From a virus (Duplodnaviria; Caudoviricetes), in IMG/VR virus record IMGVR_UViG_2703719286_000002, positions 3,723-67,722 of that record: a stretch of DNA of 64,000 nt; one strand, given 5' to 3'. The notes under the pieces were generated by a model. The model was given only the letters and a program-made list of their open reading frames with translations. It made no database searches and was not told the origin of the DNA. Of this stretch, positions 1,067 to 48,015 are shown piece after piece. Made by a program: the position numbers and the translations under genes. The first letter of the stretch is position 1. Each line of letters begins with the position of its first letter.

Positions 1067-1068
1067 CG

Positions 1069-1808: not shown

Positions 1809-1874
1809 GATCCCTCCTCACCTGGTCGCCGGCCGCCCGGTCCGACAGGTCCCGCGCCGGCCCCCCGTAGGCCC

Positions 1875-4268: not shown

Positions 4269-4633
4269 GGTCTCCCCTCAATCTCGGCCTCCACGGCCCG
4301 GCGTAGGCGCCGCACCGCCTTGATGGCGCCCAGCAGCCCCAGGGCCGCGTCCTCGGCAGGTGGCGATAGCCGGCGCCGCCTGGCAAGAGTCACCAGCCAC
4401 GTCGACGCCACTTCCAGCGCGAACTCGTCGTCGACCAGCTCCCCGAGGACACTTGCGTGGGCCGGCCCCCTAGCCGTACAATGCCCGCGACGGTGAGCAG
4501 CCGTCACATCCCGTCCCTTTCCTTGGCCCCGGCCTCCCCCGGTCGGGGCCGCTCCATTCGATCCCATAGCCTCGCTCCCTCTCGCCCGTAGGCGGGCCGT
4601 TAGGCGGGAGTCGGCGCCCTCGAGGGCCGTCAT
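4265..4633 (-). CDS. Hypothetical protein (start uncertain)
   Basis: 4-nt overlaps with xis-like gene and primase. Confidence 0.4.
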   Translation of the reverse strand: MTALEGADSRLTARLRARGSEAMGSNGAAPTGGGRGQGKGRDVTAAHRRGHCTARGPAHASVLGELVDDEFALEVASTWLVTLARRRRLSPPAEDAALGLLGAIKAVRRLRRAVEAEIEGRP

Positions 4634-4950
4634 CGTATCCGGGGGACCGGCCGGGCAGCGGTCTCGTCGACCGTTGCGGCCCCCACCCCGGCCTCGACGA
4701 AGGCCGAGAGCGACGCCGCCAGGACGCGCCTCGCCCTACCGACCGTCATGGACTGGATCAGGCCCCGCGCCAGCAACGTGTAGGTCTCGCTCCTGCTCAC
4801 GCCCAACATGGCGGCCGCCTGCGGCACCGTCACCAACAGCGGCCCGCCGGCGGCGTCAGGGCGTGCCTGGGCCGCCAGGGCGGCCCGGACCTCCTGGGCG
4901 ACGACGTCGCGGACGCCGGCCAGCAGCGGGCACCCCGTACCCTCACACAC
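4630..4950 (-). CDS. Excisionase-family HTH DNA-binding protein
   Basis: LLVTVPQAAAMLGVSRSETYTLL...GRARRV is typical of HTH_17/xis proteins. Confidence 0.8.
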   Translation of the reverse strand: MCEGTGCPLLAGVRDVVAQEVRAALAAQARPDAAGGPLLVTVPQAAAMLGVSRSETYTLLARGLIQSMTVGRARRVLAASLSAFVEAGVGAATVDETAARPVPRIR

Positions 4951-5185
4951 CGCGCGCCTCCTCCCTGCGCTCCCGCTGCCGCTGCCGCCACCACCGGCGC
5001 TTGCGAAGATTGGCGCGCGCCCGTGCGACCGCGCCGGGCGAGTACAGCCGCGCGCCTTCCCCTGTGCGAAGAGGCACCAGCACGCCGTCCAAGCGTCTGA
5101 TCGTGTCCGCGCAGACGCCCAGCTCGCGGGCGAGGGCGCCCGCCGTCACAAAATCCGGCGAGCCCCTTCCGACATTTCCCTTCAT
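4943..5185 (-). CDS. MerR-like HTH regulator
   Basis: TAGALARELGVCADTIRR...GARLYS pattern; AAGGAGG RBS upstream. Confidence 0.75.
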   Translation of the reverse strand: MKGNVGRGSPDFVTAGALARELGVCADTIRRLDGVLVPLRTGEGARLYSPGAVARARANLRKRRWWRQRQRERREEARGV

Positions 5186-5202
5186 TTTGGCCTCCTTTTC
5201 GC

Positions 5203-5231
5203 TTGACTACGGGCGGCGAGGGGTCTACGAT
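5203..5231 (+). promoter_or_regulatory. Sigma70-type promoter for the rightward regulator/int operon
   Basis: TTGACT-17 nt-TACGAT. Confidence 0.6.
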
Positions 5232-5268
5232 TAGTATTAGGCTGACGACCGGGGATGGCAATAACCTA

Positions 5269-6084
5269 ATGCACCACGATAAGGGAAACAGCGACAGCAT
5301 AAGGCGCCGGGCCTGGGGGTCACGTCTGGGCGCCGAATACGAGCGCCGCTTCGCGTGGCTCTGGGCCGAAGGGTATCGGGACCCCGCGGCGATGAAGACG
5401 CACTGGCCCCTAGAGCACCGCCAGCCCGGCGAGCCGCCCTGCCCGGACCCGAATCGGGAGCCGTCGACCGGCACGTTCCAGAACCGGATACGCGCCTACC
5501 GCGAACGCGAGGGCGCCCCGTGGCAGTTTGCGGAGGCGGACCCCGTAGAGGTCAGCGCCGTCATGCCGATCCTGGGCGCCCTACTTGAGCACACCGAGGG
5601 CCGGCTCAAGACGTTCACCCACGCCGAGGCGGCGCTGCTGGGCCGCGTGCGCGCCGCCGCCCCGGACCTGAACCCGTGGCTCACCTACCGGATAGCCCAC
5701 TCCTACGTTCTGGGCGACGCGGACGATCAGGAGTCGCTGGAGGCCCTGCTAGGCTTCGGCGCCTGGCGGTCGCTCCGCGCCGTGGGGCGCTTCCTTCAAT
5801 GGACGGCCGACCGGCGGCCGGGCTGGCTCCTGGTGCCGCGGCACCTCGCGGATAAGCGCAGTCCGAAGCGGCCGGCGCACCGCCGCAAGGGCGTCCGGGT
5901 CCTCAGCGGCATCGGCCCCGTAGACCGCCGCGCCGACGGCGCGGTCGACCCCGACGGCAAGGTGCTGCGGCCTGTGCGGACCGGGCGCCGCACCGTCATC
6001 GACTACGCGGACCTGGTCGGCGTCACGGCCGGCGTCCGGCTCGCGCTCGAGCTCGCGGCCACGATGGAAGGGGGGACACCTTGA
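5269..6084 (+). CDS. Putative satellite repressor/regulator (start uncertain, ORF open from 5203)
   Basis: Divergent from the MerR/xis/primase operon, the position of Stl-like repressors; no family motif recognised with certainty. Confidence 0.5.
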   Translation: MHHDKGNSDSIRRRAWGSRLGAEYERRFAWLWAEGYRDPAAMKTHWPLEHRQPGEPPCPDPNREPSTGTFQNRIRAYREREGAPWQFAEADPVEVSAVMPILGALLEHTEGRLKTFTHAEAALLGRVRAAAPDLNPWLTYRIAHSYVLGDADDQESLEALLGFGAWRSLRAVGRFLQWTADRRPGWLLVPRHLADKRSPKRPAHRRKGVRVLSGIGPVDRRADGAVDPDGKVLRPVRTGRRTVIDYADLVGVTAGVRLALELAATMEGGTP

Positions 6085-6305
6085 CGCGCCACCGCCACAA
6101 CTGGGCGCCGGCCGCGCCGATCGCCCCGAAGTGGGACACGGGCAACGTGCTGGCCCAGCAGGTCGCGGCCAGCCCGAAGCTGACCCACGCTGCCTGCGCG
6201 TGCGGCGCCGTCCGGTCGATCCTTGCGACTAACCGCAGGCGCAATATCTACGTCACACGGGACGGGCCGCGCGGTCGGCGCCTGTGGCGAGGCAGGAGGA
6301 GGTAG
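6081..6305 (+). CDS. Small hypothetical protein
   Basis: 4-nt overlap with upstream ORF; CxCG motif. Confidence 0.45.
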   Translation: MTRHRHNWAPAAPIAPKWDTGNVLAQQVAASPKLTHAACACGAVRSILATNRRRNIYVTRDGPRGRRLWRGRRR

Positions 6306-6310
6306 GCCAG

Positions 6311-6676
6311 ATGGTCGAACAGGACTTCGATGCCGTCGCCCGCGAAGCATGGCAGGCAGGTCTCCAGAGCGACGCACAGGCGCTCATCGGGCCGGTGGCT
6401 GAGGGTTTATGGGACGGCCTTGGCGCCATGTATCGCTATGGCGACCCCGACACGAAAGCGCGGGTCGTCTTATTGATCAGTCGAACGAAGTCGGCACAGC
6501 CGCTCGCGGGAGACGAGGCCGAACTCGTGACGATCCTGGTGGGCCTGATGGGCAGCATAGTACAGGGGTTCGCCGGGGAGGGACGATCGCGCGGCTCCGA
6601 CGCATTGATCATGGCGGCGGTCGGCCTGGCGGCGACCGTGGGCTACGTCCTGGGTCAGCGGTCAGGTGAGGGATAG
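6311..6676 (+). CDS. Hypothetical protein with hydrophobic C-terminus
   Basis: GGAGGAGGT RBS before ATG 6311; hydrophobic ALIMAAVGLAATVGYVLG segment. Confidence 0.55.
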   Translation: MVEQDFDAVAREAWQAGLQSDAQALIGPVAEGLWDGLGAMYRYGDPDTKARVVLLISRTKSAQPLAGDEAELVTILVGLMGSIVQGFAGEGRSRGSDALIMAAVGLAATVGYVLGQRSGEG

Positions 6677-6710
6677 GCCGGCGGGAGCCGACCAGGAAGG
6701 GGAACGGGTC

Positions 6711-7850
6711 ATGAAGAACAGAAGGGCAAAAGGCGAAGGCGCGCTATATAAGAAGGCTGACGGGCGCTGGTACGCCACGCTCGACCTCGGCTGGTCAGGG
6801 GGCAAGCGCCGCCGGCGGGAGGTCAGCGGAAAGACGCGGCAGGAAGCGGCCGCCAAGCTGGCCACGCTTATCAGGGAACGCGAGGACGGCCTGGACGTGC
6901 AGGCCGGGCGCATCACGGTGGCCGATCTCTTGCAGCGATGGCTCAGCGCCCTCGACGTGCGCCCGACGACGGCGCACAGGTACGAGGAGATCTGCCGGCT
7001 CAACCTGACGCCGGCGGTGGGCCAGGTGCCGATCGGCAAGCTGACGCCCCAGCACGTCGAGGAGCTGATGGCGTCCATGGTCGCGGCCGGCGCGAGCCCC
7101 AGGTCGGCCATGCACGCCCGCAGCGGCCTACGGGCGGCGCTCCACGCCGGCGAGCGGTGGGGCCTGGTGGGCCGCAACGTCGCCAGCCTGGCGAAGCCCC
7201 TCCAGGTGCCTCAACACGAGGTCCGGCCGCTGTCGCCGGCGGACGCCCGCGCCGTCCTGGCGGCGGTCCGCGGCGACCGCCTGGCCCCGCTCATCACCGT
7301 TGCGCTGGCGGTCGGCTTGCGCCAGGGCGAGGCCCTGGGGCTCCGCTGGACCGACGTGGACCTTGACGGCGCCGCCCCGATGTTGACCGTCCGGCGCACC
7401 CTGACGCGGACCGATGGCGAGTGGTCATTCGGCGAACCGAAGACAACACGATCGCGCCGGACCATCCCGCTGCCCTCCCCGGTCGTGTCCGCGCTACGCC
7501 AGCACAGGACCCATCAGCTCGAGGAGCGCCTCCAGGCTGGGCCGCTGTGGGAAGCCGACCGCTGGGAGCACCTGGTCTTCACCACCGAGACCGGCGGGCC
7601 GCTGTCCACCTTCCACGTCAGCCGGCGGTTCCGAATGTTGATCGCCGAGGCCGGACTGCCGCGTATGCGCTATCACGACCTCCGCCACGGGGCGGCGTCG
7701 CTGATGGCCGCCCAGGGCGTCCCGGTCCGCGCGGCCATGGAGCTCCTGGGCCACTCGCAGATCAGCACCACCATGGACATTTACGCCCACGTCGCCCCGG
7801 AACTCGTCAAGGAAGCGACCGACCGCGTCGCCGCGGCGCTGTGGACCTAG
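6711..7850 (+). CDS. int: Tyrosine integrase with N-terminal arm-binding region
   Basis: GEGALYKKADGRW N-terminus; catalytic GLRQGE, K(T), HDLRH, LLGHS and IYAH. Confidence 0.96.
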   Translation: MKNRRAKGEGALYKKADGRWYATLDLGWSGGKRRRREVSGKTRQEAAAKLATLIREREDGLDVQAGRITVADLLQRWLSALDVRPTTAHRYEEICRLNLTPAVGQVPIGKLTPQHVEELMASMVAAGASPRSAMHARSGLRAALHAGERWGLVGRNVASLAKPLQVPQHEVRPLSPADARAVLAAVRGDRLAPLITVALAVGLRQGEALGLRWTDVDLDGAAPMLTVRRTLTRTDGEWSFGEPKTTRSRRTIPLPSPVVSALRQHRTHQLEERLQAGPLWEADRWEHLVFTTETGGPLSTFHVSRRFRMLIAEAGLPRMRYHDLRHGAASLMAAQGVPVRAAMELLGHSQISTTMDIYAHVAPELVKEATDRVAAALWT

Positions 7851-7898
7851 GCATGAACCGCTTGACAAACGCTAGCCGCCACGGCTACATAAGAAGGG

Positions 7899-7930
7899 CA
7901 GGCGGGACCGATAGGCGGGAGATAGGCGGG
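7899..7930 (+). repeat. Tandem (GAT)AGGCGGG repeats, candidate integrase arm-type sites
   Basis: CAGGCGGGA 7899, GATAGGCGGG 7910 and 7921, between the int stop and the tRNA. Confidence 0.45.
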
Positions 7931-7975
7931 TCTGGGGGCGCCTTTGGAGCCCATACGGACGGAAATCGTATCTAC

Positions 7976-8051
7976 GCCCCTGTAGCTCAGCGGACAGAGC
8001 AGCGGTTTCCTAAACCGCGGGTCGCCGGTTCGAGTCCGGCCAGGGGCTCCA
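7976..8051 (+). tRNA. tRNA-Arg (anticodon CCT)
   Basis: Acceptor stem GCCCCTG/CAGGGGC, D arm TAGCTCAG, anticodon arm GCGGT-TTCCTAA-ACCGC, T loop GGTTCGAGTCC, encoded CCA end; 76 nt. Confidence 0.97.
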
Positions 8052-8101
8052 AAAGGCACGGGTAGCATCCTTGAAACGGGGTTTGACCTCATGTCGCGAG
8101 A

Positions 8102-8130
8102 ATCTTAAGGGATTTCTTAATAGCTGTCAA
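8102..8130 (-). promoter_or_regulatory. Leftward sigma70 promoter of the divergent switch
   Basis: Minus strand TTGACA (8130-8125), 17 nt, TAAGAT (8107-8102). Confidence 0.65.
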
Positions 8131-8159
8131 GTACTTAGAAGCCAAAGTTGAGAAAAATC

Positions 8160-8188
8160 TTGACAACCCGCCGATACCGCCGTAGAAT
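8160..8188 (+). promoter_or_regulatory. Rightward sigma70 promoter for the repressor
   Basis: TTGACA (8160-8165), 17 nt, TAGAAT (8183-8188); ATG at 8196 fits a leaderless mRNA. Confidence 0.8.
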
Positions 8189-8195
8189 GAGGTCG

Positions 8196-8429
8196 ATGAA
8201 GAATGCAGCTGTCCAAGAACTGCAAGCCATCATCGGCAAGAGAACGGTCACAGATGTTGCCGAAGGCTGGGGTATCCCGCGCTGGGTTCTCTACGACTGG
8301 ATTTACGGGAACACCAAGTGCCCGCAGGCCCGGCACCTCGTCCCCATCGCCAAGGGCATGAACCGCACCGTCGAGGAAATAGTCGAACTCTGCGACCGAC
8401 CCAACGGCGAGTCACCGCCCGCCAGTTAG
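8196..8429 (+). CDS. XRE/Cro-C1-type HTH repressor
   Basis: TVTDVAEGWGIPRWVLYDWIYGNTKCP...LVPIAKGMNRTVEEI resembles HTH_3. Confidence 0.75.
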   Translation: MKNAAVQELQAIIGKRTVTDVAEGWGIPRWVLYDWIYGNTKCPQARHLVPIAKGMNRTVEEIVELCDRPNGESPPAS

Positions 8430-8620
8430 GAGGTCTCTATGAGGGCCGCTAGCCCACGCAACTGATACCTCCGCCATCCTTCCCTCTGCCCGGTCTTGTT
8501 CCCCGCCAGATTGGTCACGGAGCAGTGCTCCTTCGCTTGCCTCTACCAAAGGTTCTACGTCTTCGGGCCGATACCTCTCTCAAAGGCCCCTTTGTCGTTA
8601 ACGACATACAGGATGATGAC

Positions 8621-9442
8621 GTGGGGAGGGACTCCTATGCTCTCTGGCTCGTCACGCGGGGGTACACGGAGGCGACCCGCCGCGGCTACCTCAAGATGCA
8701 CCGCATCTGGGATGAGTGGTGCCGGGCTCACGGCACGACCCCACGCCGCGCCAAGCGGAGCCATATCGCCCGATGGCTGCTGGAGCGGCAGGGGCGGGCA
8801 CCGGCCACGATCCGCAACACCATAATCGGACTCCGCTGCTTCTACCGTTACGCCGTCGACGTGAAGGCCCGAAGGGACAACCCGACGGAGGGCTTTCGCT
8901 GGCCAAAGGTCACGCTACCGCCCATCGCTCCCTACACCGAGGACGAGTTGCACACCCTTCTCGGCGCTGCCCGAACGCCGAGGGACCATGCCATGCTGCT
9001 CGTCCTTATCGACACGGGCCTCCGGGTGTCGGAGTTAGCCCAGATAGCACCTGCCGACATAGACTGGGAGACAGGCACCTTCACGGTGCATGGGAAGGGC
9101 GGCAAGAAGCGTCGGCTGGGACCCGGCGAGAAGACAATGAAGGCGCTCAAACGCCATGCTAAGGCGCAGAACGAGCACCTGTGGGGAGAGATCACGACGA
9201 CGGAGGGCGTCAGGGCGTGGTTCTACCGGCTGGCGAAGCGGGCCGGGGTCTCTCATGCCAACCTTCACCGCTTCCGGCACACGTATGCGACCGACTTCGT
9301 CCTAGACGGTGGCGCTGAGGGCGAATTGCAAAAGATTCTCGGACATAGTAGCCTCGCCATGTCGCACCACTACGCCGAGAACGCCCGGGACGAGACGGCT
9401 CTCGACGCGCAGCGGCGGCACAGTCGGGCGGACAGGCTATAG
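8621..9442 (+). CDS. XerC/D-like tyrosine recombinase, likely the prophage integrase (ORF open from 8525; GTG 8621 follows AGGA)
   Basis: SAM-like core-binding domain; DTGLRVSE, GKGGK, HRFRH, ILGHS and HHY; no obvious arm-binding domain. Confidence 0.9.
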   Translation: MGRDSYALWLVTRGYTEATRRGYLKMHRIWDEWCRAHGTTPRRAKRSHIARWLLERQGRAPATIRNTIIGLRCFYRYAVDVKARRDNPTEGFRWPKVTLPPIAPYTEDELHTLLGAARTPRDHAMLLVLIDTGLRVSELAQIAPADIDWETGTFTVHGKGGKKRRLGPGEKTMKALKRHAKAQNEHLWGEITTTEGVRAWFYRLAKRAGVSHANLHRFRHTYATDFVLDGGAEGELQKILGHSSLAMSHHYAENARDETALDAQRRHSRADRL

Positions 9443-9454
9443 GAGGAGGGCATC

Positions 9455-9910
9455 ATGTTCTACAAGTACCTGGCGATTGCAGCATTGGTGGCTGCTATCA
9501 TCTTGGCAGGCGTCGCCGCATGGGGGTTCTCTTCGCAGTCATCCGATGACTCTCCCGCCAACATCGCGCGTCCAGAAGCGAAGGCAACCCTGGCCGCTCT
9601 CCAACAGAAGATAGAGCGTATGATAACGTCGGCTGAGGCCGACCTTGCCGAGAGCGAACGCGAGTTGGCGACGATGGAGGCGAAGTCTACAAGCTGCCGC
9701 CAAGCCCGGCGTGACCTCCTAGATGATCTGGTGGCCATGGCCAACGCTAAGGGCACCGTCCCATCGTCAGTCATCCTCTCCGATGCAGTGCTTTTCGACG
9801 GGACGCGCCTGATTAGCATCGATACTGGAGAGCTCGACGGAGAGGTATGGCTGGATCGGGCTGCCACGGGCACCTGGAAAGTAGCGACACAGACCCTCGG
9901 ATGCCGTTGA
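9455..9910 (+). CDS. Membrane-anchored/secreted coiled-coil protein (lysogenic accessory gene)
   Basis: N-terminal hydrophobic helix; GGAGGAGG RBS; lower-GC codon usage than flanks. Confidence 0.7.
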   Translation: MFYKYLAIAALVAAIILAGVAAWGFSSQSSDDSPANIARPEAKATLAALQQKIERMITSAEADLAESERELATMEAKSTSCRQARRDLLDDLVAMANAKGTVPSSVILSDAVLFDGTRLISIDTGELDGEVWLDRAATGTWKVATQTLGCR

Positions 9911-10021
9911 CGCCCTAGCTCGGCGCCCTCACTCCGGCCCAATTGCCCTAGCAATTAAACAAAACGCCCCGAAAGTATCATTCCCCCGCGCCCCTCGCCG
10001 AAGCGGTATAATAGCCCTACG

Positions 10022-10216
10022 ATGGCCGCGCCCAAGGTCGAAGCCAAGGAGCTTGCCTGGGCCAACCTGCGCCGGCTCGCCGAACGCATCGGCTACGGCG
10101 AGTTCGAGAAGGTCCAGCTTCAGGACGGCGTCCCCGTCCGCGTCGCTATCGCCTGGGGCACCGTCAAGCTGGACAGCCGGGAGGAAGTCGACCGGATTGT
10201 AGGCCCCCGCCGCTAG
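10022..10216 (+). CDS. Small protein, DUF2292/YezD-like
   Basis: IGYGEFEKVQLQDGVPVRV resembles that family; TATAAT at 10007-10012 just upstream. Confidence 0.5.
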   Translation: MAAPKVEAKELAWANLRRLAERIGYGEFEKVQLQDGVPVRVAIAWGTVKLDSREEVDRIVGPRR

Positions 10217-10241
10217 GTCGGGGCCCAGGGGGACGACCCAA

Positions 10242-10277
10242 GGGCTGCGCTCACAGAGAGCGTGGCCCTTTCCTTTT
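10242..10277 (+). terminator. Intrinsic terminator
   Basis: Stem GGGCTGCGCT/AGCGTGGCCC followed by TTTCCTTTT. Confidence 0.55.
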
Positions 10278-10506
10278 GCCCATGACGCACCGCATCGCCG
10301 ATCTGCTGACGCCGGAATCCTGGGCCGCCCTCATCCGCGCGGGCTACATCAGGAAGAGGGAGTCGCCGCCCCAAGAGGAGAAGCGGCGGGCTGCCGGAGA
10401 GGCGCCTGAGCTCACGGCAGAGCAGGCCGAGATCGCGCGCGAGATGCGGGCGCCGCCGACCGGGGACTACGCGCGCTACATCGGCGGTGGGCCGGAGCCG
10501 TCATGA
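10276..10506 (+). CDS. Hypothetical protein (start uncertain)
   Basis: ORF coupled (ATGA) to the next gene. Confidence 0.45.
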   Translation: MPMTHRIADLLTPESWAALIRAGYIRKRESPPQEEKRRAAGEAPELTAEQAEIAREMRAPPTGDYARYIGGGPEPS

Positions 10507-10793
10507 CTGGCCAGCCATCGCGCCCTTGGTGCTGTCCTGAGCCGCGCTGCTGGCTCCTGATGAACTACAACATCGCTGGCACGAGGCCAGGGGAAAGCTT
10601 CATCTGCTTCGGCCTAATGGAGCGCCCAATTGAGTTCAGCTACGACGGCACGGCTCACAGGAACGACCTGAACCACTGCGACTACACGCCGCTCAAGGGC
10701 GTGATCCGCTGGCAGGAGAACGAGGAGGACTGGCGGGCGATGCGAGTCCTCTATGGCGTCGCGCTGAGGAAGTTGAGAGCCAGCAGGAGATGA
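10503..10793 (+). CDS. Hypothetical protein
   Basis: ATGA overlaps at both ends. Confidence 0.55.
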   Translation: MTGQPSRPWCCPEPRCWLLMNYNIAGTRPGESFICFGLMERPIEFSYDGTAHRNDLNHCDYTPLKGVIRWQENEEDWRAMRVLYGVALRKLRASRR

Positions 10794-11215
10794 CTGACCG
10801 CCCCTGGCAGACCGACGAGTGGCATCACGTCGGGCGACAGATAAGGGACGCCTGGCGCGCCCTACGGCGACTCTCGCTCCAGGCGTGGCCGGTCCGTGTG
10901 GAATGGCCGCCGCGGGTCAGCGTCGACAAGGCGCAGCGCACCAGCCATCCGCAGCGGGCCGTCGAGAAGCTGGAGGAGCGCGAGGAGAAGATCGGCCTCA
11001 GGCGCCAGGACGTGAACGACGCGATAGCCGAGCTCTCCGACGTCGACCACGAGGCGTTCCTGGCCCTGGCCCAGCGCGAGGGGCTGGTCAAGGGCGAGAA
11101 GCAGATGCAGGCAGCCGAGATCGCCCAGCGCCACTCCTGCTCCGAGGCGCGCATCTACGGGCTGCTGAGCGACGGCTGGGCGTTCATTGCGTACCGAATC
11201 AGCCATGAAGGGTGA
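10790..11215 (+). CDS. RinA/ArpU-like phage transcriptional activator (sigma-region-4 HTH)
   Basis: Coiled coil, then AIAELSDVDHEAF...MQAAEIAQRHSCSEARIYGLL HTH. Confidence 0.6.
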   Translation: MTDRPWQTDEWHHVGRQIRDAWRALRRLSLQAWPVRVEWPPRVSVDKAQRTSHPQRAVEKLEEREEKIGLRRQDVNDAIAELSDVDHEAFLALAQREGLVKGEKQMQAAEIAQRHSCSEARIYGLLSDGWAFIAYRISHEG

Positions 11216-11363
11216 GACCTGCCCGCCGCACCACGTCATCATCGACCGGGAGGAGTTCGTGGAGATGCGGGACGGCCTCGCTGTCTATCGCTGGTGGGGC
11301 CGCTGCAAGAAGTGTCGCCGCCAGCGGAGCGGCAAGTCCGTGAGGCTGCCGTACAGGGAGTAG
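11205..11363 (+). CDS. 52-aa Cys/His protein missing from the ORF track
   Basis: My translation MKGETCPPHHVIID...GRCKKCRRQ...LPYRE*; it fills the gap and ends 3 nt before the recombinase ATG. Confidence 0.5.
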   Translation: MKGETCPPHHVIIDREEFVEMRDGLAVYRWWGRCKKCRRQRSGKSVRLPYRE

Positions 11364-11366
11364 GAG

Positions 11367-11927
11367 ATGGCCCGACGTCTCCCCCGCGTCCCCTCGGTCG
11401 ACGAGGCCCGCCGGCTCCTGGCCGCGGCCGCCTCCCCGCGAGACAAGGCCATCATCGCCTTCGGCCTCTACGCCGGCCTGCGTCGGGCCGAGATCGCCGG
11501 CCTGGATATCGGCCACGTCTCACTGGCCGAGGGCCGCGTCTACGTCCACAGAGGCAAGGGCGACAAGGACCGCGTGGTGCCGCTGCACCCCGAGCTGGCG
11601 GAGGTCTACCGGGAGTACCTGGACGGTGTGCTGAGGGATGACGGCCCGCTCTTCCCCGGCCGGGACGGGCCGCGCATCGGGCTACGGACGATCCAGGACA
11701 TAGTGACGAGGACGGCGGCGCGGGCGGGGACGAAAGGAATCCACACCCACAGCTTGAGGCATGGGTTTGGAACCTTCAGCTATGAGGTGAAGCAGGACCT
11801 CCGGGCCGTACAGGAAGCGATGGGGCACGCCAGCATCAGCACGACGCAACTCTACGCTCACATCTCAGGGAAGCACCTCCGGCAGACGGTGGAGGGGTTC
11901 TCGCTGACGGGCGGCGGGCAGGACTAG
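11367..11927 (+). CDS. Short catalytic-domain-only tyrosine recombinase (186 aa)
   Basis: AGLRRAE, GKGDK, HSLRH, AMGHASISTTQLY; no core-binding or arm domain. Confidence 0.9.
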   Translation: MARRLPRVPSVDEARRLLAAAASPRDKAIIAFGLYAGLRRAEIAGLDIGHVSLAEGRVYVHRGKGDKDRVVPLHPELAEVYREYLDGVLRDDGPLFPGRDGPRIGLRTIQDIVTRTAARAGTKGIHTHSLRHGFGTFSYEVKQDLRAVQEAMGHASISTTQLYAHISGKHLRQTVEGFSLTGGGQD

Positions 11928-12658
11928 CGACCCGGAGGCCTCGGCTTCAGTCTCGGCTTCACCCCCAGGCAGATGACCATCGCATTCACCGCGTCCTGGT
12001 CGCGGCCCTCAGAGAGCGCCTTGATGATCTTCATGCGCTTGCGGTGCTTCTCCAGTTCCTTCTCGGCGTCGGACATGGTCAGCGCCTCCATGTGGTAGCG
12101 GACGCGGGCCTCGAACGCCCGGTCATCAAACAGTCTTCCAGGGTCACTCTTGCCCCATTTCCTCCCGTTGGCGCTCCGGTCGTGGCGTGCGATGCCAGGC
12201 GCCTCGTGGTTGTCCCCCGAGACGTAGGGCAGCACCACCGGCGGGATGTCGTAGCGCAGACAGTCCCTTGCCACCTCGAGGGCCGCGCGCTCAAGGCAGG
12301 CTGGGGTGAAGGCCGACTGCCAGCTCGGTTGCGCCAGCTCGTAGGAGATGGCGATCGGGTCCATGTGGCCGGCGCTCCAGGTAGGATGATACTCGTCGGG
12401 GATGCTGATGCAGTGCTGGCCCTCGTGCGAGATGATGCGCGAGGACATGGAGCCCCAGACGGCGCCGCTCGGCTCCACGACCTTGTTGCTGGGGGCGACC
12501 TGCCAGTTCTTGGTGGCCGGGTACTGGAGCGCCATGCGTACCCGGCCCCGCGTCGCGTGCATCAGGATCAGTCGGACGGGCTGGGTGCGACGGGCGTACT
12601 TCCAGCGATGGGCCCGGACCTGGGGCCAGATTGTCTCATCGGGTGGCCACGTCGCCAT
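11924..12658 (-). CDS. Endolysin, N-acetylmuramoyl-L-alanine amidase (Amidase_2-like)
   Basis: LILMHAT, ISYEL, ARHD and KSDPG Zn-amidase motifs; next to holin-like genes. Confidence 0.8.
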   Translation of the reverse strand: MATWPPDETIWPQVRAHRWKYARRTQPVRLILMHATRGRVRMALQYPATKNWQVAPSNKVVEPSGAVWGSMSSRIISHEGQHCISIPDEYHPTWSAGHMDPIAISYELAQPSWQSAFTPACLERAALEVARDCLRYDIPPVVLPYVSGDNHEAPGIARHDRSANGRKWGKSDPGRLFDDRAFEARVRYHMEALTMSDAEKELEKHRKRMKIIKALSEGRDQDAVNAMVICLGVKPRLKPRPPGR

Positions 12659-12679
12659 GCAGCATCCTCTCGATCCTTT

Positions 12680-12943
12680 TCATGAGCTCATCCCATCGTC
12701 TCGGAGATAGGGCCCCTCGATTCCTGGTGCTCCATCCCCCGCCAGCGGCCGCGAGGTTCCGTCTCGGAGCTTGTACAGAAGGTAGAGGCTGTCGCCGCAG
12801 ACCTTTTGCACCGCCTCGTAGCTTCCGACCAGCCTTATCGCCCATCGGCCATCCCCATCAGCGATCTCTATGACCGGCTCCTCGCGCGTCCCCTGGGCCT
12901 CGACCTTGGTGGCAAGGTCGACCGTGAGCGCTGGCGTTGGCAT
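12680..12943 (-). CDS. Hypothetical protein in lysis module
   Basis: MPTPALTVDL... start follows GGAGGGG RBS. Confidence 0.45.
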   Translation of the reverse strand: MPTPALTVDLATKVEAQGTREEPVIEIADGDGRWAIRLVGSYEAVQKVCGDSLYLLYKLRDGTSRPLAGDGAPGIEGPYLRDDGMSS

Positions 12944-12960
12944 CGGCCCCTCCGTCCGCA

Positions 12961-13161
12961 CTACTGCCCGTTCCGCCTGTTCGTGAGGTAGGCGGGGAGC
13001 TTGATGCCCAGGGCACCGACGCCGGCCGTGATCATGGCCACGGCCAGGAGGCCGGCCATCGTGGGATCGCGCAGCGCGGGATACCCAAAAAACAGGCCGG
13101 CCGCCCCCAGCGCGATGAGCGAGAAGGCGGCCGCGGCCCGCACCCACTGGAGCGGCGTCAT
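12961..13161 (-). CDS. Holin-like protein (two TM helices)
   Basis: MTPLQWVRAAAAFSLIALGAAGLFFG...AGLLAVAMITAGVGALGIK, basic C-terminus; upstream of the endolysin. Confidence 0.65.
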   Translation of the reverse strand: MTPLQWVRAAAAFSLIALGAAGLFFGYPALRDPTMAGLLAVAMITAGVGALGIKLPAYLTNRRNGQ

Positions 13162-13253
13162 AGCTCGTACACCCCCGCCCAGGAGCCGAGGTACATCAGC
13201 CCCACGTAGCCCAGGCCGATCAGGATGCCCGCGATGTATTCCACTGTCGTCAC
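13158..13253 (-). CDS. 31-aa single-TM peptide missing from the ORF track
   Basis: GGAGG RBS overlapping a GTG start; MTTVEYIAGILIGLGYVGLMYLGSWAGVYEL*; ATGA overlap with the holin. Confidence 0.45.
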   Translation of the reverse strand: MTTVEYIAGILIGLGYVGLMYLGSWAGVYEL

Positions 13254-13256
13254 CTC

Positions 13257-13610
13257 CTACCGTGTCGCTGCCTGCCGCAGCGTCGCCCGCCCGAAGGCGA
13301 GCACCGTCTCGTAGCCTGCGTCGGAGCGGCGCAGGGTGTAGTAGTAGTCGCCGGGGTTCAGCTCGAGCGTATCGCTGTCCGCGATGGCGACCGAGCAGAT
13401 GCCCGCCGTGCCATCCGCAGTGATGCCGGTTCCGAGCGTCTTGGTCAGCACCGTCGTCCCTGCGTCCGGCCGCTCCCTCAGCACCCACTCCAGGCCCCAG
13501 CCGGTGATGGGCTGGACGTCGCCGTCGCTGTCCACGACCGTGTGCCGGAACGTGCGGTCCTCGCCGATGAACCAGTGGTCGCCCGCCCGGACAGGGCTCT
13601 CTTCGCTCAT
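13257..13610 (-). CDS. BppU-like Ig-fold baseplate/tail accessory protein
   Basis: Beta-rich; GDYYYTLRRSD...VLAFGRATL pattern; end of tail module. Confidence 0.55.
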   Translation of the reverse strand: MSEESPVRAGDHWFIGEDRTFRHTVVDSDGDVQPITGWGLEWVLRERPDAGTTVLTKTLGTGITADGTAGICSVAIADSDTLELNPGDYYYTLRRSDAGYETVLAFGRATLRQAATR

Positions 13611-15832
13611 GCCACTGACGCCTCCAACTCGATGATGGGCTTGTACGACGCGGCCAGGGCCAGCACCGGCTTGTAGCTGGCCGCGAGGGCCAGGATGGGC
13701 TCGTAGGACGCGGCCAGGTCGGTGATCCGGATGGCGAAGACGACGGCCGAGGCGGTCAGCGTTCCCGTGCCCGACAGGACGGCGGCCCCCTCCCTGGCCT
13801 CGCCGGGGACGACGACCCGGCCATCGGCCGTCAGCGTGCCCTCGCCGCTCAGCGAGGCGGCGCCGGCGTAGAGGACGACCGACTTGACCGTGAGGACGCC
13901 CTCGCCCGAGAGGCTGGCGACGGCCGCATAGCTGACGGTGGCCTTCGACGTGAGCCCGCCCTGGCCTGAGAGCGACGCTTCACCGTGTAGCCCCTTGACT
14001 GCGCCAGCCGACAGGGTGCCTTCGCCCGCCAGGGACGCCCCGGCGGTGCGTTCGCGGAGCCCGGAGGCGGCAAGGCTGCCCTGGCCGGACAGGCTGGCGG
14101 CCCCCGCTGCCTCGACCATCCCTGCGGCGGTGAGCGTCCCCTGGCCGGAGAGCGACGCTTCACCCTCGACCTTGCCGACGATCTCGCCGGCGGCGGTGAG
14201 GGTGCCTTCCCCTGAGAGAGCCGCAGCCCCCGCCGCTTGGAGAGCTCCCGCCGCGCTGACGGTGCCCTGGCCCGAGAGGGACGCCGCCGCCTCGTGCGCC
14301 ACCCCCGTCCGCCCGTCGGCGCTGAGCGAGCCTACACCGGAGAGGGCGGCGGCTGCGACCAGCGCGACGGTCGCGATGCAGGAGAGGGCGCCGGCCCCGG
14401 AGAGGGCGGCGCTGCCCTCGTGGGCCACGCCCCCCGCTGCCGTGTACTCGATGTGGAGCTTGGCGGGTGAACTGTTTGCCTCGTAGGAATCCCAGTCCTG
14501 ATAGTGATAGCCGGAGCTGACCCCGTTGTTCTTGTGGACGATCTGGATCGCTGACGGGTCGTGCTCATCGACCAGCTCTTGGAGTACGCTGTTCAGCGAT
14601 GGGCTCGTTCCCCAGGCGTTGTTGACCGAGTTAGCGTCCCAGTCAGCGCCGGCAGTGGTGAGCGGGAGAGCGTCAAACTCAGTGGCATCAGTCGGCGCGA
14701 GCGGGGCCGCACGGTCATCGGCGTAGAGCTTGGTTTGTGGACTGCCCTGCCCGTTGCCGTAGCCGTACTTCTCCACATAGCTAACGTCTATCGTCGCACC
14801 GGATAGGCCGCTTATGCCCGTGAAACGGTCGGAGGCGTGCATATTCAGATAGGCGGCGGCGTCTCCCCACCCAACCATGTGGCGGCTGGCACTGCTATCG
14901 AAGCCGCCAGTCCCGGTTTGGCGTCGCGTATCGTCTGCCCCTGTCCCCACCTGTGCGGGTTGGGGGTCAATGTCCACGTCCACCACGAGCGGGTAGGCCG
15001 CGCCCTGCACGAAGCCCAGCGGTACACGATGCGAGACGTAGAGAGCGTTGCCCACCTTCTTGAACCGGAAGGTGCCTAGCTGCTCCTCGCCCTCGGCGTC
15101 CCAGGAGCGGGGCAGGTTGAACCACCAGAGGACGTTGCCATCGCCGTCCCGGAACTCCACGAGGCCCTGAGTCTCGCGCTGCTCGCGGTCCGCGCCCCGG
15201 CCCCACGGCTGGCCGTTGACGTAGGGGGTGATGCCGCTGCTGAAGGCGAAGATGAAGTTCAGCTCCAGGACCGGCTCGCCGCCGTCAAGGATGTACTGCT
15301 CCACGGGCGGCAGATCGGAGGGGCTGTCGATGGTGAGGCGCTTGGCGAGGCGGGCCGTCTGGGCCTGCCAGGAGATGGAGACGCCGGGGCCGTAGCCGTC
15401 CGGCCAGGTGAGGGTGTCGTCCTCCACCTCGGCGTCAACGGCCCCCGGCATGGCGATGGGCTGTATCTGGTCAAGGGCGTTGCTGTACTGGAGGGCGTGC
15501 GGCTGGAAGCGCACCCACTCGCCCGACTGCCCATCGCGGTACTCGATGACCTGCCCGGCGTCGAGGCGGGACAGCGCCCGCACCTCGAACCCGGCATGGG
15601 TCATCTCCCACTGCCAGGGCGCGGTGGACGGGGCGAAGGCGGTGTCTATCTCCAGGTCCGCGTCCGGACCGCAGTGGAGCGGGCCGATGGCGCAGTCGAG
15701 GGCAAAGCGTTGCCTACCGTCGGGCGCGTCGAACAGGCGATGCTTGATAGAGTTGCGGCCGCGCTCGACGACGACCGCCTCCGGGTGAGCGGCCAGGACG
15801 CGGGCGCGGGCTTCCGCCGCAGGGTTGGCCAT
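13607..15832 (-). CDS. Tail fibre/receptor-binding protein with A(S)LSGxGxL repeats
   Basis: Many GxAxLSG(E/Q)GxLxA repeats in the C-terminal third; central CBM-like domain. Confidence 0.7.
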   Translation of the reverse strand: MANPAAEARARVLAAHPEAVVVERGRNSIKHRLFDAPDGRQRFALDCAIGPLHCGPDADLEIDTAFAPSTAPWQWEMTHAGFEVRALSRLDAGQVIEYRDGQSGEWVRFQPHALQYSNALDQIQPIAMPGAVDAEVEDDTLTWPDGYGPGVSISWQAQTARLAKRLTIDSPSDLPPVEQYILDGGEPVLELNFIFAFSSGITPYVNGQPWGRGADREQRETQGLVEFRDGDGNVLWWFNLPRSWDAEGEEQLGTFRFKKVGNALYVSHRVPLGFVQGAAYPLVVDVDIDPQPAQVGTGADDTRRQTGTGGFDSSASRHMVGWGDAAAYLNMHASDRFTGISGLSGATIDVSYVEKYGYGNGQGSPQTKLYADDRAAPLAPTDATEFDALPLTTAGADWDANSVNNAWGTSPSLNSVLQELVDEHDPSAIQIVHKNNGVSSGYHYQDWDSYEANSSPAKLHIEYTAAGGVAHEGSAALSGAGALSCIATVALVAAAALSGVGSLSADGRTGVAHEAAASLSGQGTVSAAGALQAAGAAALSGEGTLTAAGEIVGKVEGEASLSGQGTLTAAGMVEAAGAASLSGQGSLAASGLRERTAGASLAGEGTLSAGAVKGLHGEASLSGQGGLTSKATVSYAAVASLSGEGVLTVKSVVLYAGAASLSGEGTLTADGRVVVPGEAREGAAVLSGTGTLTASAVVFAIRITDLAASYEPILALAASYKPVLALAASYKPIIELEASVA

Positions 15833-27528: not shown

Positions 27529-28086
27529 TCAGTTGTCCGTTCTGTAGGTGTCCACCTCGGCCCGGCCTTCGCCCAGGTCCTGGCGGACGCCGAACCCGCG
27601 CGGGAAGCGCGGCGGCACGAGGTCCGTGTCGGCGGCGACCGTCCTCTTGCGGCTGCGGCTCCTGCCCGTCAGCACCAACCCTGTGCCGACGCGCTCCGTC
27701 CTCGCGCCGCCCAGGGCCTCGAAGGCGTCGGTCGCCATGAAGGCCGTGCCGTCCCGCCAGGCCGCCGAGAACTCCTTGAAGCGCTCGTTGGGCTCGCCGC
27801 CGCCGGCCACGGGCTGCGTCAGCTCGACCTTGCGGGTGGCGCCCACGGCGTTCAGGTCCTCCAGGTAGCCGACCACCTGCGTGTCGGTCTGCGCCGGGTT
27901 GTAGCCCTGCTCGGCGAGGATGGCCTGGAGCTGGTAGTAGGTCTGCGTCAGGAAGCGCTCGACCTGGGCGAGCGTCGGGTGGCTCGTCGTGTCGAAAATG
28001 CCGTCGCTGGTCAGGTGCCGGCAATAAGCCTCCACAGTCTGGATGCAGCTCGAGCCGGCCGTGAGCTCGTAGGCGTTGTAGGACAA
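27529..28086 (-). CDS. Head-tail adaptor/connector
   Basis: TTG start after GGAGG-rich leader; helical, QVERFL...LQAILAEQGY; neck position. Confidence 0.55.
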   Translation of the reverse strand: MSYNAYELTAGSSCIQTVEAYCRHLTSDGIFDTTSHPTLAQVERFLTQTYYQLQAILAEQGYNPAQTDTQVVGYLEDLNAVGATRKVELTQPVAGGGEPNERFKEFSAAWRDGTAFMATDAFEALGGARTERVGTGLVLTGRSRSRKRTVAADTDLVPPRFPRGFGVRQDLGEGRAEVDTYRTDN

Positions 28087-29303
28087 GCCTCCACCTCCCT
28101 CCTCAGTGTCTTCGGGGTGATGGTCTCGGCCAGCTCGTCCATGAATGGCCTCCAACGGTTCTCCACTAGGGTGTCCCAGTCGTATTGCATCGCGAAGTCG
28201 CGGGCCCGCTGCCGCCGGGCCGGGTCCCTCGCGCTGTCGTGTGCCCACTCCAGCAGGGTGGCGAGGGCATCGACGTCGGGTATCGCCTGCCAGGAACCGA
28301 GGGGGCTCATGTGCCGCGCCGCGACCGGGATGCGCCAGTTGGCGTCCTCGACGAGCTCGGCGCTGGCCGCGAAGTCGGTGGCGATGACGGGCGTTCCGCA
28401 GGCCTGCGCCTCCACCAGCGGGATCCCGAAGCCCTCGCCCATCGTCGGCAGCGCGAACACGTCGAAGGCGTTGTAGATCCTGATCATGGTCTCGCTGTCG
28501 AAACCCCGCTGCACCTTGTACGGGTCGGGGAAGCGCAGCCTCTCGGCCACCCCGGTTCTCCGGCCCCAGTCGAGGAGGTCCGGGCCGCCGTGCTGGCGGG
28601 TGGCCAGCGTGTGGACGTAGAGCTGGGCGTCGTCGTGGCGGTCGGAGAAGCCCTTGAACGCCTCGAAGAGCCACTGGAAGCCCTTGCGGTCGGGCCAGCC
28701 CTTGTTGGCGCCGACGCAGCCCACCAGGAAGCAGTCGCGGGGGAAGCCCAGCATCTCCTTGCAGTCGCCCCGCTCCTCGGGCAGAGGCCGGAATAGCTTG
28801 GTCTCCACGCCGTGCGGGATGTAGACGTTCTCGACGGCGTGGCGGTTCAGCTCAATGTGCGCGGAGCGGCTGTAGGTCAGCGGCATGTACGCCTGCCGGC
28901 AGCGGTCGAGGACCGGCGGCGGGACCGGCTCGTGGTCGATGGGCATCCAGGGCAGCCAGTAGTAGGAGCTGGCCCCGAACTTCTGGACGTCGAGCACCCA
29001 GAGGTCCATGAGGGTGATGAGGCAGTCGGCCCCGAAGTCGGCGGCGTGGTCGGTGATGGCGTCGTTCCCCCACACGTCGCCGAGCACGGGGTAGCAGGTC
29101 ACCTCGGCCTCGCCGCTGAACTCGTTGCCGATGCGCTGGCGCGTCATGGCGCCCTGCACGCCGTAGTAGGCGAACACGGCGATGTCGTCGACGCTGTCCA
29201 GGCGCAGGAGCCGGGGGAGCAGGCTGTTGCTCTGGATCCCGTACCCGGTGAGGCACCAGGGCGCGTTGGCCATGTAGAGTATGCGAAGTCCTTTGTTCGT
29301 CAT
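28011..29303 (-). CDS. Glycosyltransferase, GT-B/GT4-like
   Basis: LRILYMANAPW..TGYG N-terminus; FDVFALPTMGEGFGIPLVEAQACGTPVIAT nucleotide-sugar motif. Confidence 0.92.
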   Translation of the reverse strand: MTNKGLRILYMANAPWCLTGYGIQSNSLLPRLLRLDSVDDIAVFAYYGVQGAMTRQRIGNEFSGEAEVTCYPVLGDVWGNDAITDHAADFGADCLITLMDLWVLDVQKFGASSYYWLPWMPIDHEPVPPPVLDRCRQAYMPLTYSRSAHIELNRHAVENVYIPHGVETKLFRPLPEERGDCKEMLGFPRDCFLVGCVGANKGWPDRKGFQWLFEAFKGFSDRHDDAQLYVHTLATRQHGGPDLLDWGRRTGVAERLRFPDPYKVQRGFDSETMIRIYNAFDVFALPTMGEGFGIPLVEAQACGTPVIATDFAASAELVEDANWRIPVAARHMSPLGSWQAIPDVDALATLLEWAHDSARDPARRQRARDFAMQYDWDTLVENRWRPFMDELAETITPKTLRREVEACPTTPTSSRPARAASRLWRLIAGT

Positions 29304-29373
29304 CCTGCTCTCGCTCCTTCTGGCTCCAAGATTTCCCGCCGCCGGCCCGCCATCGGCATGACTATCTGTAGCA

Positions 29374-29619
29374 TCAGGACTCCTTTCCCTTCTCTCGCCA
29401 CTCACGCCATGCGGCAGCGTTCCTTACTCGTTCAGCGTGCCTGTCTATGGGCTCGGGAGAGGGTGGCTCTACAGGCCGGTGTCCCCACTTCAGCCGGTGC
29501 AGCCACCGCACACCGATGATTTCCCAACAGAGGTCGCAGGGTTGGCCACCCGAACTGAGCTTCCCATAGTCCGGCGGCAGCACTGGTGGGTCAGCCGGCG
29601 CTGTCAGCACTCTTCTCAT
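29374..29619 (-). CDS. Small hypothetical protein (CxxC)
   Basis: ORF within the cluster; PCDLCW. Confidence 0.45.
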   Translation of the reverse strand: MRRVLTAPADPPVLPPDYGKLSSGGQPCDLCWEIIGVRWLHRLKWGHRPVEPPSPEPIDRHAERVRNAAAWREWREKGKES

Positions 29620-46348: not shown

Positions 46349-46470
46349 GGCGACTCCTTACGGTTATTCCGCTAGGGAGAGAGGCAACGAAGGGCCAGAA
46401 GAACGGCCGGGCTCCCACGAACCCGGCGGATCAGGAAGGCCGCCCCCGCTTAGGGAACGGCCCACGATAG

Positions 46471-46543
46471 AGTATACCACGGGATCGCCTCAGCGACTTT
46501 AGAGACTATACGGACTCTAAAGACTCCAGCGACTTTAAGAACT
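46471..46543 (-). promoter_or_regulatory. Probable late promoter with upstream repeated boxes
   Basis: Extended -10 TGG-TATACT (46479-46471), no consensus -35; CAGCGACTTTA direct repeat at 46491 and 46527; CTTTAGAG/CTCTAAAG inverted pair 46497-46522. Confidence 0.6.
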
Positions 46544-46563
46544 CTAGGCTCTTCATCCTTTGC

Positions 46564-46596
46564 GGGGGCCGGTCGCCCACTGCGATACCGGCCCCC
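46564..46596 (-). terminator. Strong hairpin closing the GGT-NN array
   Basis: GGGGGCCGGT.../...ACCGGCCCCC 10-bp inverted repeat. Confidence 0.65.
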
Positions 46597-46604
46597 GACG
46601 CAAG

Positions 46605-46750
46605 TCCTATCCTCACCCTACCGGACCACACCGCACCCGACCAGACCTTACCGAACCCGACCCAACCTGACCAGCCTTACCTCACCAGACCCTACCGGAC
46701 CAGACCATACCAAACCGCACCGCACCCCAGCGAACCAGCCTTACCTCACG
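46605..46750 (-). ncRNA. GGT-NN pentamer array, candidate VIPR-type guide RNAs
   Basis: Minus strand (GGT-NN)n with a repeated 16-nt handle GTGAGGTAAGGCTGGT (46749-46734, 46685-46670); 10 and 11 variable dinucleotides; non-coding, downstream of a RAMP-like operon. Confidence 0.75.
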
Positions 46751-47411
46751 GAAGGGCCACGAGCAGCTTCTCAAGGAGCCCGTGCAGGTGCCGGAGCCGC
46801 CCAGACAGGTGCTCATCATGTTGAACCAGCAGCTCGCCCTCGATGAAGTTGATCACCTGGTCGACGTAGTAGACCTGGGGGAAGCCGCCGGCCTGCTCAT
46901 TCGCCTCTTCCTGTTGCGGCGTCAGCTTCATAGCTGCCAGATGTGACACCGAACGCTTGATCACCACGGCTCCGTCCTGGCCCTCGGCGAAGCGGCGCTT
47001 CTCGATCTTCGCCACCATGATCTTCGTTATGCCGAGCGCCTCCGCAACGACGGCCCTCTCGATCTTGAAGTCCGCCGCCCGGAGGAGACATCGGTCCCGA
47101 TCCAGGGGCGTCAGCGGCGCCCCGTGGCCAGCGTTGAGCCGGATGGCGTCGAGATACATCTCCTCGTCCGACCCGTACTCTCGCCACTCCACAAGGATTT
47201 CCGCGTCACGGCCAGCGGCGACGGTCGTGGCCCGCACGCGGTGGAAGCCGTCCACTACCCGCTTCGACTTCCGGTCAACGATGATGGCTGGCAACCGACG
47301 GCCAAGGCCAAGGGCCTCGATGAGCCGCCGCGTGTTCAGGCTGTCCAGCTCGGTGCGGGGGTAGATGTTGTAGTCGAGTACCAGTTCGGCCAGCTTGACT
47401 TTAGGCATCAT
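46746..47411 (-). CDS. ParB/Srx N-terminal domain plus HTH protein
   Basis: LPAIIVD....VVDGFHRVRA ParB motif; RLNAGHG..LT; AVVAEALGIT HTH. Confidence 0.8.
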   Translation of the reverse strand: MMPKVKLAELVLDYNIYPRTELDSLNTRRLIEALGLGRRLPAIIVDRKSKRVVDGFHRVRATTVAAGRDAEILVEWREYGSDEEMYLDAIRLNAGHGAPLTPLDRDRCLLRAADFKIERAVVAEALGITKIMVAKIEKRRFAEGQDGAVVIKRSVSHLAAMKLTPQQEEANEQAGGFPQVYYVDQVINFIEGELLVQHDEHLSGRLRHLHGLLEKLLVALP

Positions 47412-48015
47412 GCACCTCTTCGATGCGCTCTACCTCGAACCGTCCGTATGGACCACGCTTCTGAGGGCGGAAGTCCAGCAGGCCCATCGTCTTGCCGCTC
47501 TCCTGGGCGCGCTCGACGATGTAGCCTTCTTTGCCCTCCCAAGTGTCGAGATCGTATTCCCACTGCACCTCGATCTCCCAGGGCGGGTCGATCCTGGGCC
47601 GGCGGCGCATGATGCGACCACGGCCGCGGATGACGACGGGCTGGGAATCGACAGCATACTCCGTGAGGCACTCGCCGTTGCGCCGCAGCGGATGGGCGTG
47701 GACCGTGGGGAAGACGGAACCCGCCATGATCGGACCCAGAGCGACACTGCGCTTCTTTCCCGGCACCTTAATCTCGTAGCCCTTGCAGGCATTCATGAGG
47801 GCTTGATAAGGAGCCATCGCTGGAACGTAGAGCCGCCCATCTGGGAGACGGTGAGCCCGCTGCTCGGCTTCCTCCTCTGGGGTCCCATAGTCCTTTGGCT
47901 TGCTGACCTCCTTCTCGCGCTCTTTCCCGCCCTCGTCCTCTTCCATGCCCTTCGTGCTGCTCATAAGCAGCGGCGTGAGCCCGTTGAACCGTAGACTGAG
48001 AATCCCTGTTTTCAA
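47401..48015 (-). CDS. Stand-alone Cas7/RAMP-like protein (Vipr-like)
   Basis: RAMP hallmarks: N-terminal strand LRFNGLTPLLM, GRLYVPAMAPYQAL (IPGSSLKG-equivalent), C-terminal Gly loop GLLDFRPQKRGPYGRFEV; 204 aa; no other cas genes. Confidence 0.7.
   Translation of the reverse strand: MKTGILSLRFNGLTPLLMSSTKGMEEDEGGKEREKEVSKPKDYGTPEEEAEQRAHRLPDGRLYVPAMAPYQALMNACKGYEIKVPGKKRSVALGPIMAGSVFPTVHAHPLRRNGECLTEYAVDSQPVVIRGRGRIMRRRPRIDPPWEIEVQWEYDLDTWEGKEGYIVERAQESGKTMGLLDFRPQKRGPYGRFEVERIEEVHDA

Follow-up and report, generated by a model that had tools for sequence, protein, structure and literature searches.

What does a short tract of G-rich pentamers on the minus strand of a provirus encode and, if it specifies guides, at what could those guides be aimed? 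The tract occupies 46749-46604 (-) of a 64,000-nucleotide window, the whole stretch of DNA analysed here (positions 3,723 to 67,722 of IMG/VR record IMGVR_UViG_2703719286_000002). The source record is an IMG/VR provirus, 78% complete; a DNA search of deposited phages returned no match to it, and its TerL is at most 41% identical to any. VIPR systems rely on Vipr, a small RAMP protein encoded by phages, which covers a guide RNA (vrRNA) composed of GGY/NN pentamers. The NN positions base-pair with DNA and leave out every third base of the target, and this binding shuts down transcription in competing phages or satellites (10.64898/2026.04.26.720920, 10.64898/2026.04.26.720927, 10.64898/2026.10.15.759431). 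Judged from its sequence, the tract is in all likelihood a VIPR (Viral Interference Programmable Repeat) vrRNA array with two guides in a high-GC provirus and, since VIPR and its skip rule were published in 2026 preprints, the locus would belong to an already described kind of system. The first-pass annotation had assumed a rule of one skipped target base per step, which is the same as the published one. It had also read a conserved scaffold with differing NN as a programmable-guide design, and a fixed GGY scaffold with variable NN matches the published vrRNA architecture.

Anatomy of the array and its operon

Read on the minus strand, the tract is an unbroken succession of GGT-NN pentamers that falls into two registers. 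When the 67,722-nt record was scanned with the register taken into account, two GG[CT]NN runs of 12 units each were found, at 46736-46672 and 46672-46613; between them the 4-nt unit GGCT shifts the frame by one base. Outside the array, the longest GG[CT]NN run in the whole record has at most 4 units. GGT is kept in 24 of the 26 array pentamers. The features of the locus are as follows.

47401-48015, minus strand: vipr (P0002), coding for a 204-aa RAMP/Cas7-like protein, TTG start, two genes upstream of the array
46746-47411, minus strand: vap (P0001), coding for a 221-aa ParB/KorB-like protein; overlaps the vipr stop
46737-46749, minus strand: repeat or tail copy 1 (GTGAGGTAAGGCT), 5' of guide 1; no guide stands ahead of this copy
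46702-46736, minus strand: variable units of putative guide 1, TC GG GC GC TT AT CT (7 NN); in the second unit the scaffold is degenerate (GCT)
46673-46701, minus strand: conserved 3' part of guide 1 (GGT-CC, GGT-AG, GGT-CT) with repeat copy 2
46628-46672, minus strand: variable units of putative guide 2, CA TG CG TC AA CT CG GC GT (9 NN)
46604-46627, minus strand: conserved 3' part of guide 2 (GGT-CC, GGT-AG) with degenerate repeat copy 3
46563-46600, minus strand: GC-rich hairpin from a fold prediction, closing the array at about 46600-46563

The dinucleotides of unit 1 are TC GG GC GC TT AT CT CC AG CT, with the degenerate GCT scaffold at 46731-46729, and those of unit 2 are CA TG CG TC AA CT CG GC GT CC AG, followed by GA-GGA-TA-GGA. 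Both strings had been decoded in the first-pass annotation, and they proved letter-perfect: laid on the array at 3-nt spacing they score 20/20 (46687-46733) and 22/22 (46618-46669), against a maximum of 17-18 for shuffled strings.

The reading of the sequence between the guides needs to be corrected. GTGAGGTAAGGCT is found at 46749-46737 and 46685-46673 (-), and GTGAGGATAGGAC, a degenerate copy of it, at 46616-46604 (-). Copy 2 is itself built as GGT-GA, GGT-AA and GGCT, the 4-nt GGCT shifting the register by one base, and the degenerate copy 3 as GGT-GA, GGA-TA and GGAC. A 16-nt stretch containing this motif had been taken for a 5' handle of each unit, but every guide is flanked by this repeat, which resembles a tail and is common to related arrays. 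In the ParB-associated relatives, all guides end in purine-rich fixed dinucleotides and then a frame-breaking GGA(C), as in L001 (AG-GA-AA-GA-GA, then GGACAC) and L023 (GA-AA, then GGACGCC); the purine-rich ending with GGA(C) is present in L001, L023, L052, L081 and L027, and in L001 and L023 the tail-like motif also stands 5' of the first guide. At our locus the guides end in CC-AG-CT-GA-AA-GGCT (guide 1) and CC-AG-GA-TA-GGAC (guide 2). From this arrangement, the supposed handle is a conserved, pentamer-based repeat between guides, or a 3' tail. No sister array with the same tail was found in IMG/VR.

The dinucleotides CC-AG are common to units 1 and 2, and the earlier suspicion that they are scaffold holds for AG, as the nearest related arrays also close their guides with AG-GA-AA and then GGAC, while CC stays ambiguous. 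We would thus assign AG, GA and AA/TA to the scaffold and leave CC and the extra CT as ambiguous. Because the tail is shared with related arrays, the effective guides would shrink from 10 and 11 dinucleotides to about 7-8 and 9-10. Specificity most likely resides in TC GG GC GC TT AT CT (with or without CC) and CA TG CG TC AA CT CG GC GT (with or without CC).

The vipr and vap genes are intact and overlapping, and the TGA of vap lies inside the first repeat copy. A scan for a sigma-70-like promoter between the upstream genes and the array found none. The position of the vap stop within repeat copy 1, together with the absence of a promoter between the parts, fits a single transcript, and vipr, the ParB-like vap and the array appear to form an operon in which the 204-aa Vipr and its accessory gene share one leftward unit. 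The strong closing hairpin (46563-46600) has no U tract and was not called by the consensus terminator scan; it is predicted to be a terminator or a 3' cap. Predicted structure in the array did not go beyond that of shuffled sequence (z = +0.63), as expected for a protein-coated guide. No pseudoknot and no stable fold were predicted for the array tail, whereas the SUSP1 tail is a pseudoknot, and no family in Rfam 15 matched the array.

Two further elements lie between the array and the first late gene. The first, at window 46491-46538, consists of 2.7 copies of an 18-nt unit (plus-strand consensus CAGCGACTTTAAAGACTA); it is placed between the VIPR hairpin and the late operon, lies just ahead of a TATACT -10-like box and might act as a set of operators for the late promoter. 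The second, at 46427-46406 (-), is a hairpin that resembles a terminator and is followed by a T-rich tail. It is situated in the leader, after the putative late promoter and before the first late gene (46348), and suggests that late transcription is controlled by antitermination.

Vipr, its relatives and the ParB/KorB-like partner

The AF2 model of P0002 (pLDDT 80.6) has Csm3/Cas7 chains as its top Foldseek matches (6ifn_F/E, E ~2e-6); 6ifn also served the discoverers of VIPR as a query (10.64898/2026.04.26.720920, 10.64898/2026.04.26.720927). Alignment A1, which comprises P0002 and five homologues, was compared by hhalign with SUSP1 Vipr (NC_028808 28474-29061, minus strand) and matched it over its full length with a probability of 97.5%, E 6.7e-12 and 168 aligned columns. 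The G-loop D181-F182-R183 and thumb R139 of P0002 align to D177-W178-R179 and R138 of SUSP1, for which contact with both guanines and the pyrimidine is reported (10.64898/2026.04.26.720920, 10.64898/2026.04.26.720927). R139, D181, F182 and R183 are conserved in alignment A1; the position of SUSP1 H17, which contacts G1, is Ser19 in P0002 and His in some relatives.

At E<=1e-3, homologues of P0002 amount to 950 representatives, and a same-strand GGYNN array stands beside the vipr homologue in 76 of 80 IMG/VR loci. A tblastn search of deposited phages with Vipr gave no match. One orthologue, P0003, is 73% identical and absent from the genome-contig scan, so the array comparisons reach relatives only, the nearest Vipr with DNA compared being 39% identical. 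Among these relatives, the L003-L013 clade comprises six loci with vipr DNA 96-99% identical and arrays just upstream of vipr, each with 3-5 guides; 21 of the 24 guide strings are distinct while scaffold and tail are invariant. Such diverse NN on an invariant scaffold is what programmable guides predict. The first-pass annotation had regarded invariant NN positions in orthologous arrays as evidence against guides, and invariant NN is contradicted in this related clade, which is not a close orthologue. Array turnover in L003-L013 is fast relative to the protein gene. At another extreme of size, the IMG/VR locus L067 / L072 (4443-9131) has about ten vrRNA-like arrays, each ending GGCAG-GGA-TAC..., scattered among several genes around one vipr homologue, and is far larger than the two-gene minimum.

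P0001, the product of vap, matched phrog_1033 (ParB-like, E 7.8e-8) in PHROG, and its AF2 model (pLDDT 81.5) gave as top Foldseek matches ParB-CDP (6sdk), M. xanthus ParB-CTPgS (7bnr), Noc (7ng0) and KorB (8qa9), at E 1e-6 to 1e-5. Like ParB, Noc and KorB, which are CTP-dependent DNA clamps of the ParB family, it has a predicted N-terminal ParB domain and a helix-turn-helix domain. KorB of plasmid RK2 is a long-range transcriptional repressor. P0001 differs from these clamps in three respects: its nucleotide-binding box reads D-G-F-H-R and not G-E-R-R (R58 is invariant in alignment A2), it has no Pfam ParBc match even at E<=5, and no canonical C-terminal dimerisation domain was matched. With DGFHR in place of GERR, CTP-clamp activity can be proposed only tentatively. 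Of the 95 related loci, 16 have a ParB-like homologue adjacent to vipr, and the loci closest to ours (L001, L002 and L023) are among these 16.

The best-studied counterpart is the type II VIPR of Escherichia phage SUSP1, which consists of vipr-vap1 and four vrRNAs; experiments on the skip-1 rule concern type II (SUSP1) only, and target searches support it for the P. fulva clade and for types III and V (10.64898/2026.04.26.720920, 10.64898/2026.04.26.720927, 10.64898/2026.10.15.759431). Our locus resembles SUSP1 VIPR in being phage-borne, in its small stand-alone RAMP with aligned G-loop (D-aromatic-R) and thumb Arg, in its two-gene operon with same-strand GGY/NN pentamer guides, and in having no cas genes, no CRISPR array and no self-target. 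In contrast to SUSP1, the accessory gene is ParB-like and unrelated to vap1, the homology of Vipr is seen only by profile comparison, and the guides are shorter (7-10 variable units) and contiguous, with a 13-14-nt pentamer-built repeat between them, whereas SUSP1 guides each have a leader and a structured pseudoknot tail. In the staggered or contiguous vrRNA arrays of other VIPR types, which the first VIPR preprint mentions (fig. S18), guides abut too, each guide ending where the next begins, with a one-base register change at the junction. An accessory gene with a DNA-interacting domain, a conserved 3' tail and a same-strand array of at least four GGY-NN pentamers are all present at the locus.

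The Cas7 (Csm3) filaments that class 1 CRISPR systems form on crRNA are built alike: the fold is the same, each protomer covers an RNA period of fixed length, and a thumb interrupts pairing periodically. The period here is 5 nt with 2 pairing bases, versus 6 nt with 5 in those filaments, and Cas5, Cas6, Cas10 and adaptation genes are lacking, and the repeats differ from palindromic CRISPR repeats. No cas genes and no CRISPR repeats were seen among the neighbouring ORFs and families, and the hallmarks of CRISPR-Cas (24-40-nt direct repeats between unique spacers, cas1/cas2 or effector cas) were not found.

Searches for targets of the two guides

Targets were sought in the whole 67.7-kb provirus record, that is, the window and the 3.7 kb to its left, with 200 shuffled guides as controls. 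At skips of 0, 1 and 2 the best scores were 14-16 of 20-22 (14/20 and 15/22 under skip 1), and the variable cores alone reached 11/14 and 13-14/18; between 54 and 100% of the 200 shuffled guides reached the scores of the real ones. The sole outlier was the skip-3 self-match of the array. The first-pass annotation had pointed to the satellite and to the promoters at 8100-8190 and 46470-46545 as places to look for the decoded targets, and had held that a lack of enrichment over shuffled controls would speak against guides. No hits were enriched in this window: the satellite, both promoters and the rest of the record stayed at the level of shuffled guides in every register. Published VIPR systems show no self-targets either (10.64898/2026.04.26.720920, 10.64898/2026.04.26.720927), and thus a null window scan does not refute guide function.

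Self-targeting, including that of the satellite-like element (186-8051) and the two promoters, was rejected, since the best scores in skip registers 0-2 equalled those of the 200 shuffles, and this neighbouring element does not appear to be a target of the VIPR system at 46604-48015. A tRNA-Arg(CCT) gene (window 7976-8051) marks the junction of two integrative elements. Its best identity among 251 Planctomycetota is 89%, a search of 121 Verrucomicrobiota gave nothing at E<=1e-21, and single planctomycete and verrucomicrobial MAGs have it at 86-87%. The element left of the tRNA has a D5-type primase-helicase and a tyrosine integrase (window 1992-4268 and 6666-7850), and contains neither a vrRNA-like array of its own nor a match to either guide. 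Further left, outside the window, record bases 1-3722 (L126) hold a MarR-like gene and a 481-aa ORF without a PHROG match.

In IMG/VR, the full-length guide 1 pattern had no exact matches. The eight-NN pattern of guide 1 had 12 matches (about 7 distinct) on unrelated contigs with a GC content of 0.40-0.64; a single one of them extends to the shared AG, and the following CT is matched by none. The nine-NN core of guide 2 had one exact 18/18 match, on L096, and three order-shuffled controls of this core had 0, 0 and 0. The chance expectation for the core, scaled from the 12 matches (about 7 distinct) of the 16-base pattern, is about 0.4-0.75, and therefore the single L096 match is not significant. 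In JGI metagenomes the same core gave 15 scattered matches (GC 0.39-0.73), none of which extends into CC-AG or has a guide-1 match nearby, and the skipped base falls at a wobble position in at most 2 of 14. The 95 VIPR-bearing related loci (0.92 Mb) showed no excess once redundant loci were discounted. In none of the collections covered did a natural target rise above the chance level. The customary threshold of at least 80% matching NN loses all power when 14-18 informative bases are sought in a large database and no shuffled controls accompany the search.

Could guide 2 nevertheless truly target L096-type phages, so that VIPR would block expression of a competitor's virion gene? L096 (IMGVR_UViG_3300047160_002723, 1-13685) is a phage fragment of 61% GC, and its site lies in a 182-aa gene of no known function that stands between the terminase and portal genes, within the late operon. 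Under skip 1 all nine variable dinucleotides pair and the match ends exactly where CC-AG begins, the shuffled controls stayed empty, and the same site is found on a second independent contig, L119. Against these points stand the chance expectation given above and the position of the skipped base, on codon position 1, whereas in published VIPR targets it is typically at the wobble position (10.64898/2026.04.26.720920, 10.64898/2026.04.26.720927). Guide 1 scores 14/20 on the L096 contig, which is not above chance, and no function is known for the target gene. The GC content and a glycosylation/methylation cluster, inside which the site lies, count in favour; one of the cluster's transferases, GT1, resembles an enzyme of the window, but a single transferase at 33% identity connects the two only weakly. 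We consider such targeting rather unlikely.

Several observations on that cluster stand apart from the question of targeting. In L096, glycosyltransferase and methyltransferase genes are inserted between the terminase and portal genes, and the identity of 33% is between GT1 and the enzyme at window 28011-29405 (E 7e-57). The virion-glycosylation cluster of the window recurs in unrelated phages.

Alternative readings and proposed mechanism

That no target was found in the provirus's own record, IMG/VR or the JGI metagenomes could also mean that the decoded strings specify nothing, the array being a decayed, non-targeting remnant or a decoy RNA that titrates Vipr. One scaffold (GCT) and the last repeat (GGA-TA-GGAC) are degenerate, and there are only two guides, against 3-10 in many relatives. 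A decayed array is nonetheless hard to reconcile with GGT kept in 24 of 26 pentamers and with vipr and vap intact and overlapping as one operon; internal degeneracy is reported in the VIPR preprints as common in working vrRNAs, and with scans confined to the record itself and to public virus and metagenome collections, rather than the host and its mobile elements, a missing target is to be expected. On balance we hold decay or decoy function to be improbable. The ParB-family gene directly upstream and the tandem-repeat nature of the tract might instead call to mind an element acting as DNA, either a ParB-like binding array (centromere or iteron-like) or a satellite generated by slippage, with no guide RNA made. 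ParB sites, however, are palindromic 14-16-mers, not 5-nt G-rich strand-asymmetric repeats, GGY-NN arrays also accompany vipr homologues that have no ParB-like neighbour (79/95 loci), and slippage would make the NN positions uniform, but at 46604-46749 they vary. A DNA-level element is for these reasons scarcely credible.

For the VIPR vrRNA array that we favour, the following course of events can be proposed. A leftward transcript would run through vipr, vap and the array and end at the hairpin at 46600-46563. By analogy with SUSP1, each Vipr protomer would bind one GGT-NN pentamer and hide its GGT, and the NN bases would be presented to pair with double-stranded DNA, every third target base being skipped. 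The bound DNA would then be silenced, presumably in a competing phage or satellite. Each guide would be closed by the conserved tail-like repeat (CC)-AG-(CT)-GA-AA, followed by GGCT or GGAC. The ParB/KorB-like Vap probably reinforces silencing on the DNA. What the analysis itself demonstrates is the anatomy, the homologies and the lack of self-targets; that the array is expressed and processed, how it pairs in this clade and what Vap does are inferred.

A more far-reaching version, which we offer as speculation and think quite unlikely, is that the RNA-guided Vipr filament marks, in a programmable way, where Vap loads onto DNA as a ParB/KorB-like nucleotide-gated clamp. The clamp would then spread from the target and shut off an entire operon in a competing phage, for example an L096-type late operon, and the repeat flanking the guides would represent a CRISPR-like repeat-guide-repeat stage of array evolution.

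The first descriptions of VIPR date from 2026, and natural targets have been established for only a few clades. The features of note at this locus are the ParB/KorB-like partner and the repeat-guide-repeat layout. With its guide strings corrected, a clean minimal two-guide locus with a ParB-like partner in a high-GC provirus would extend the VIPR family.
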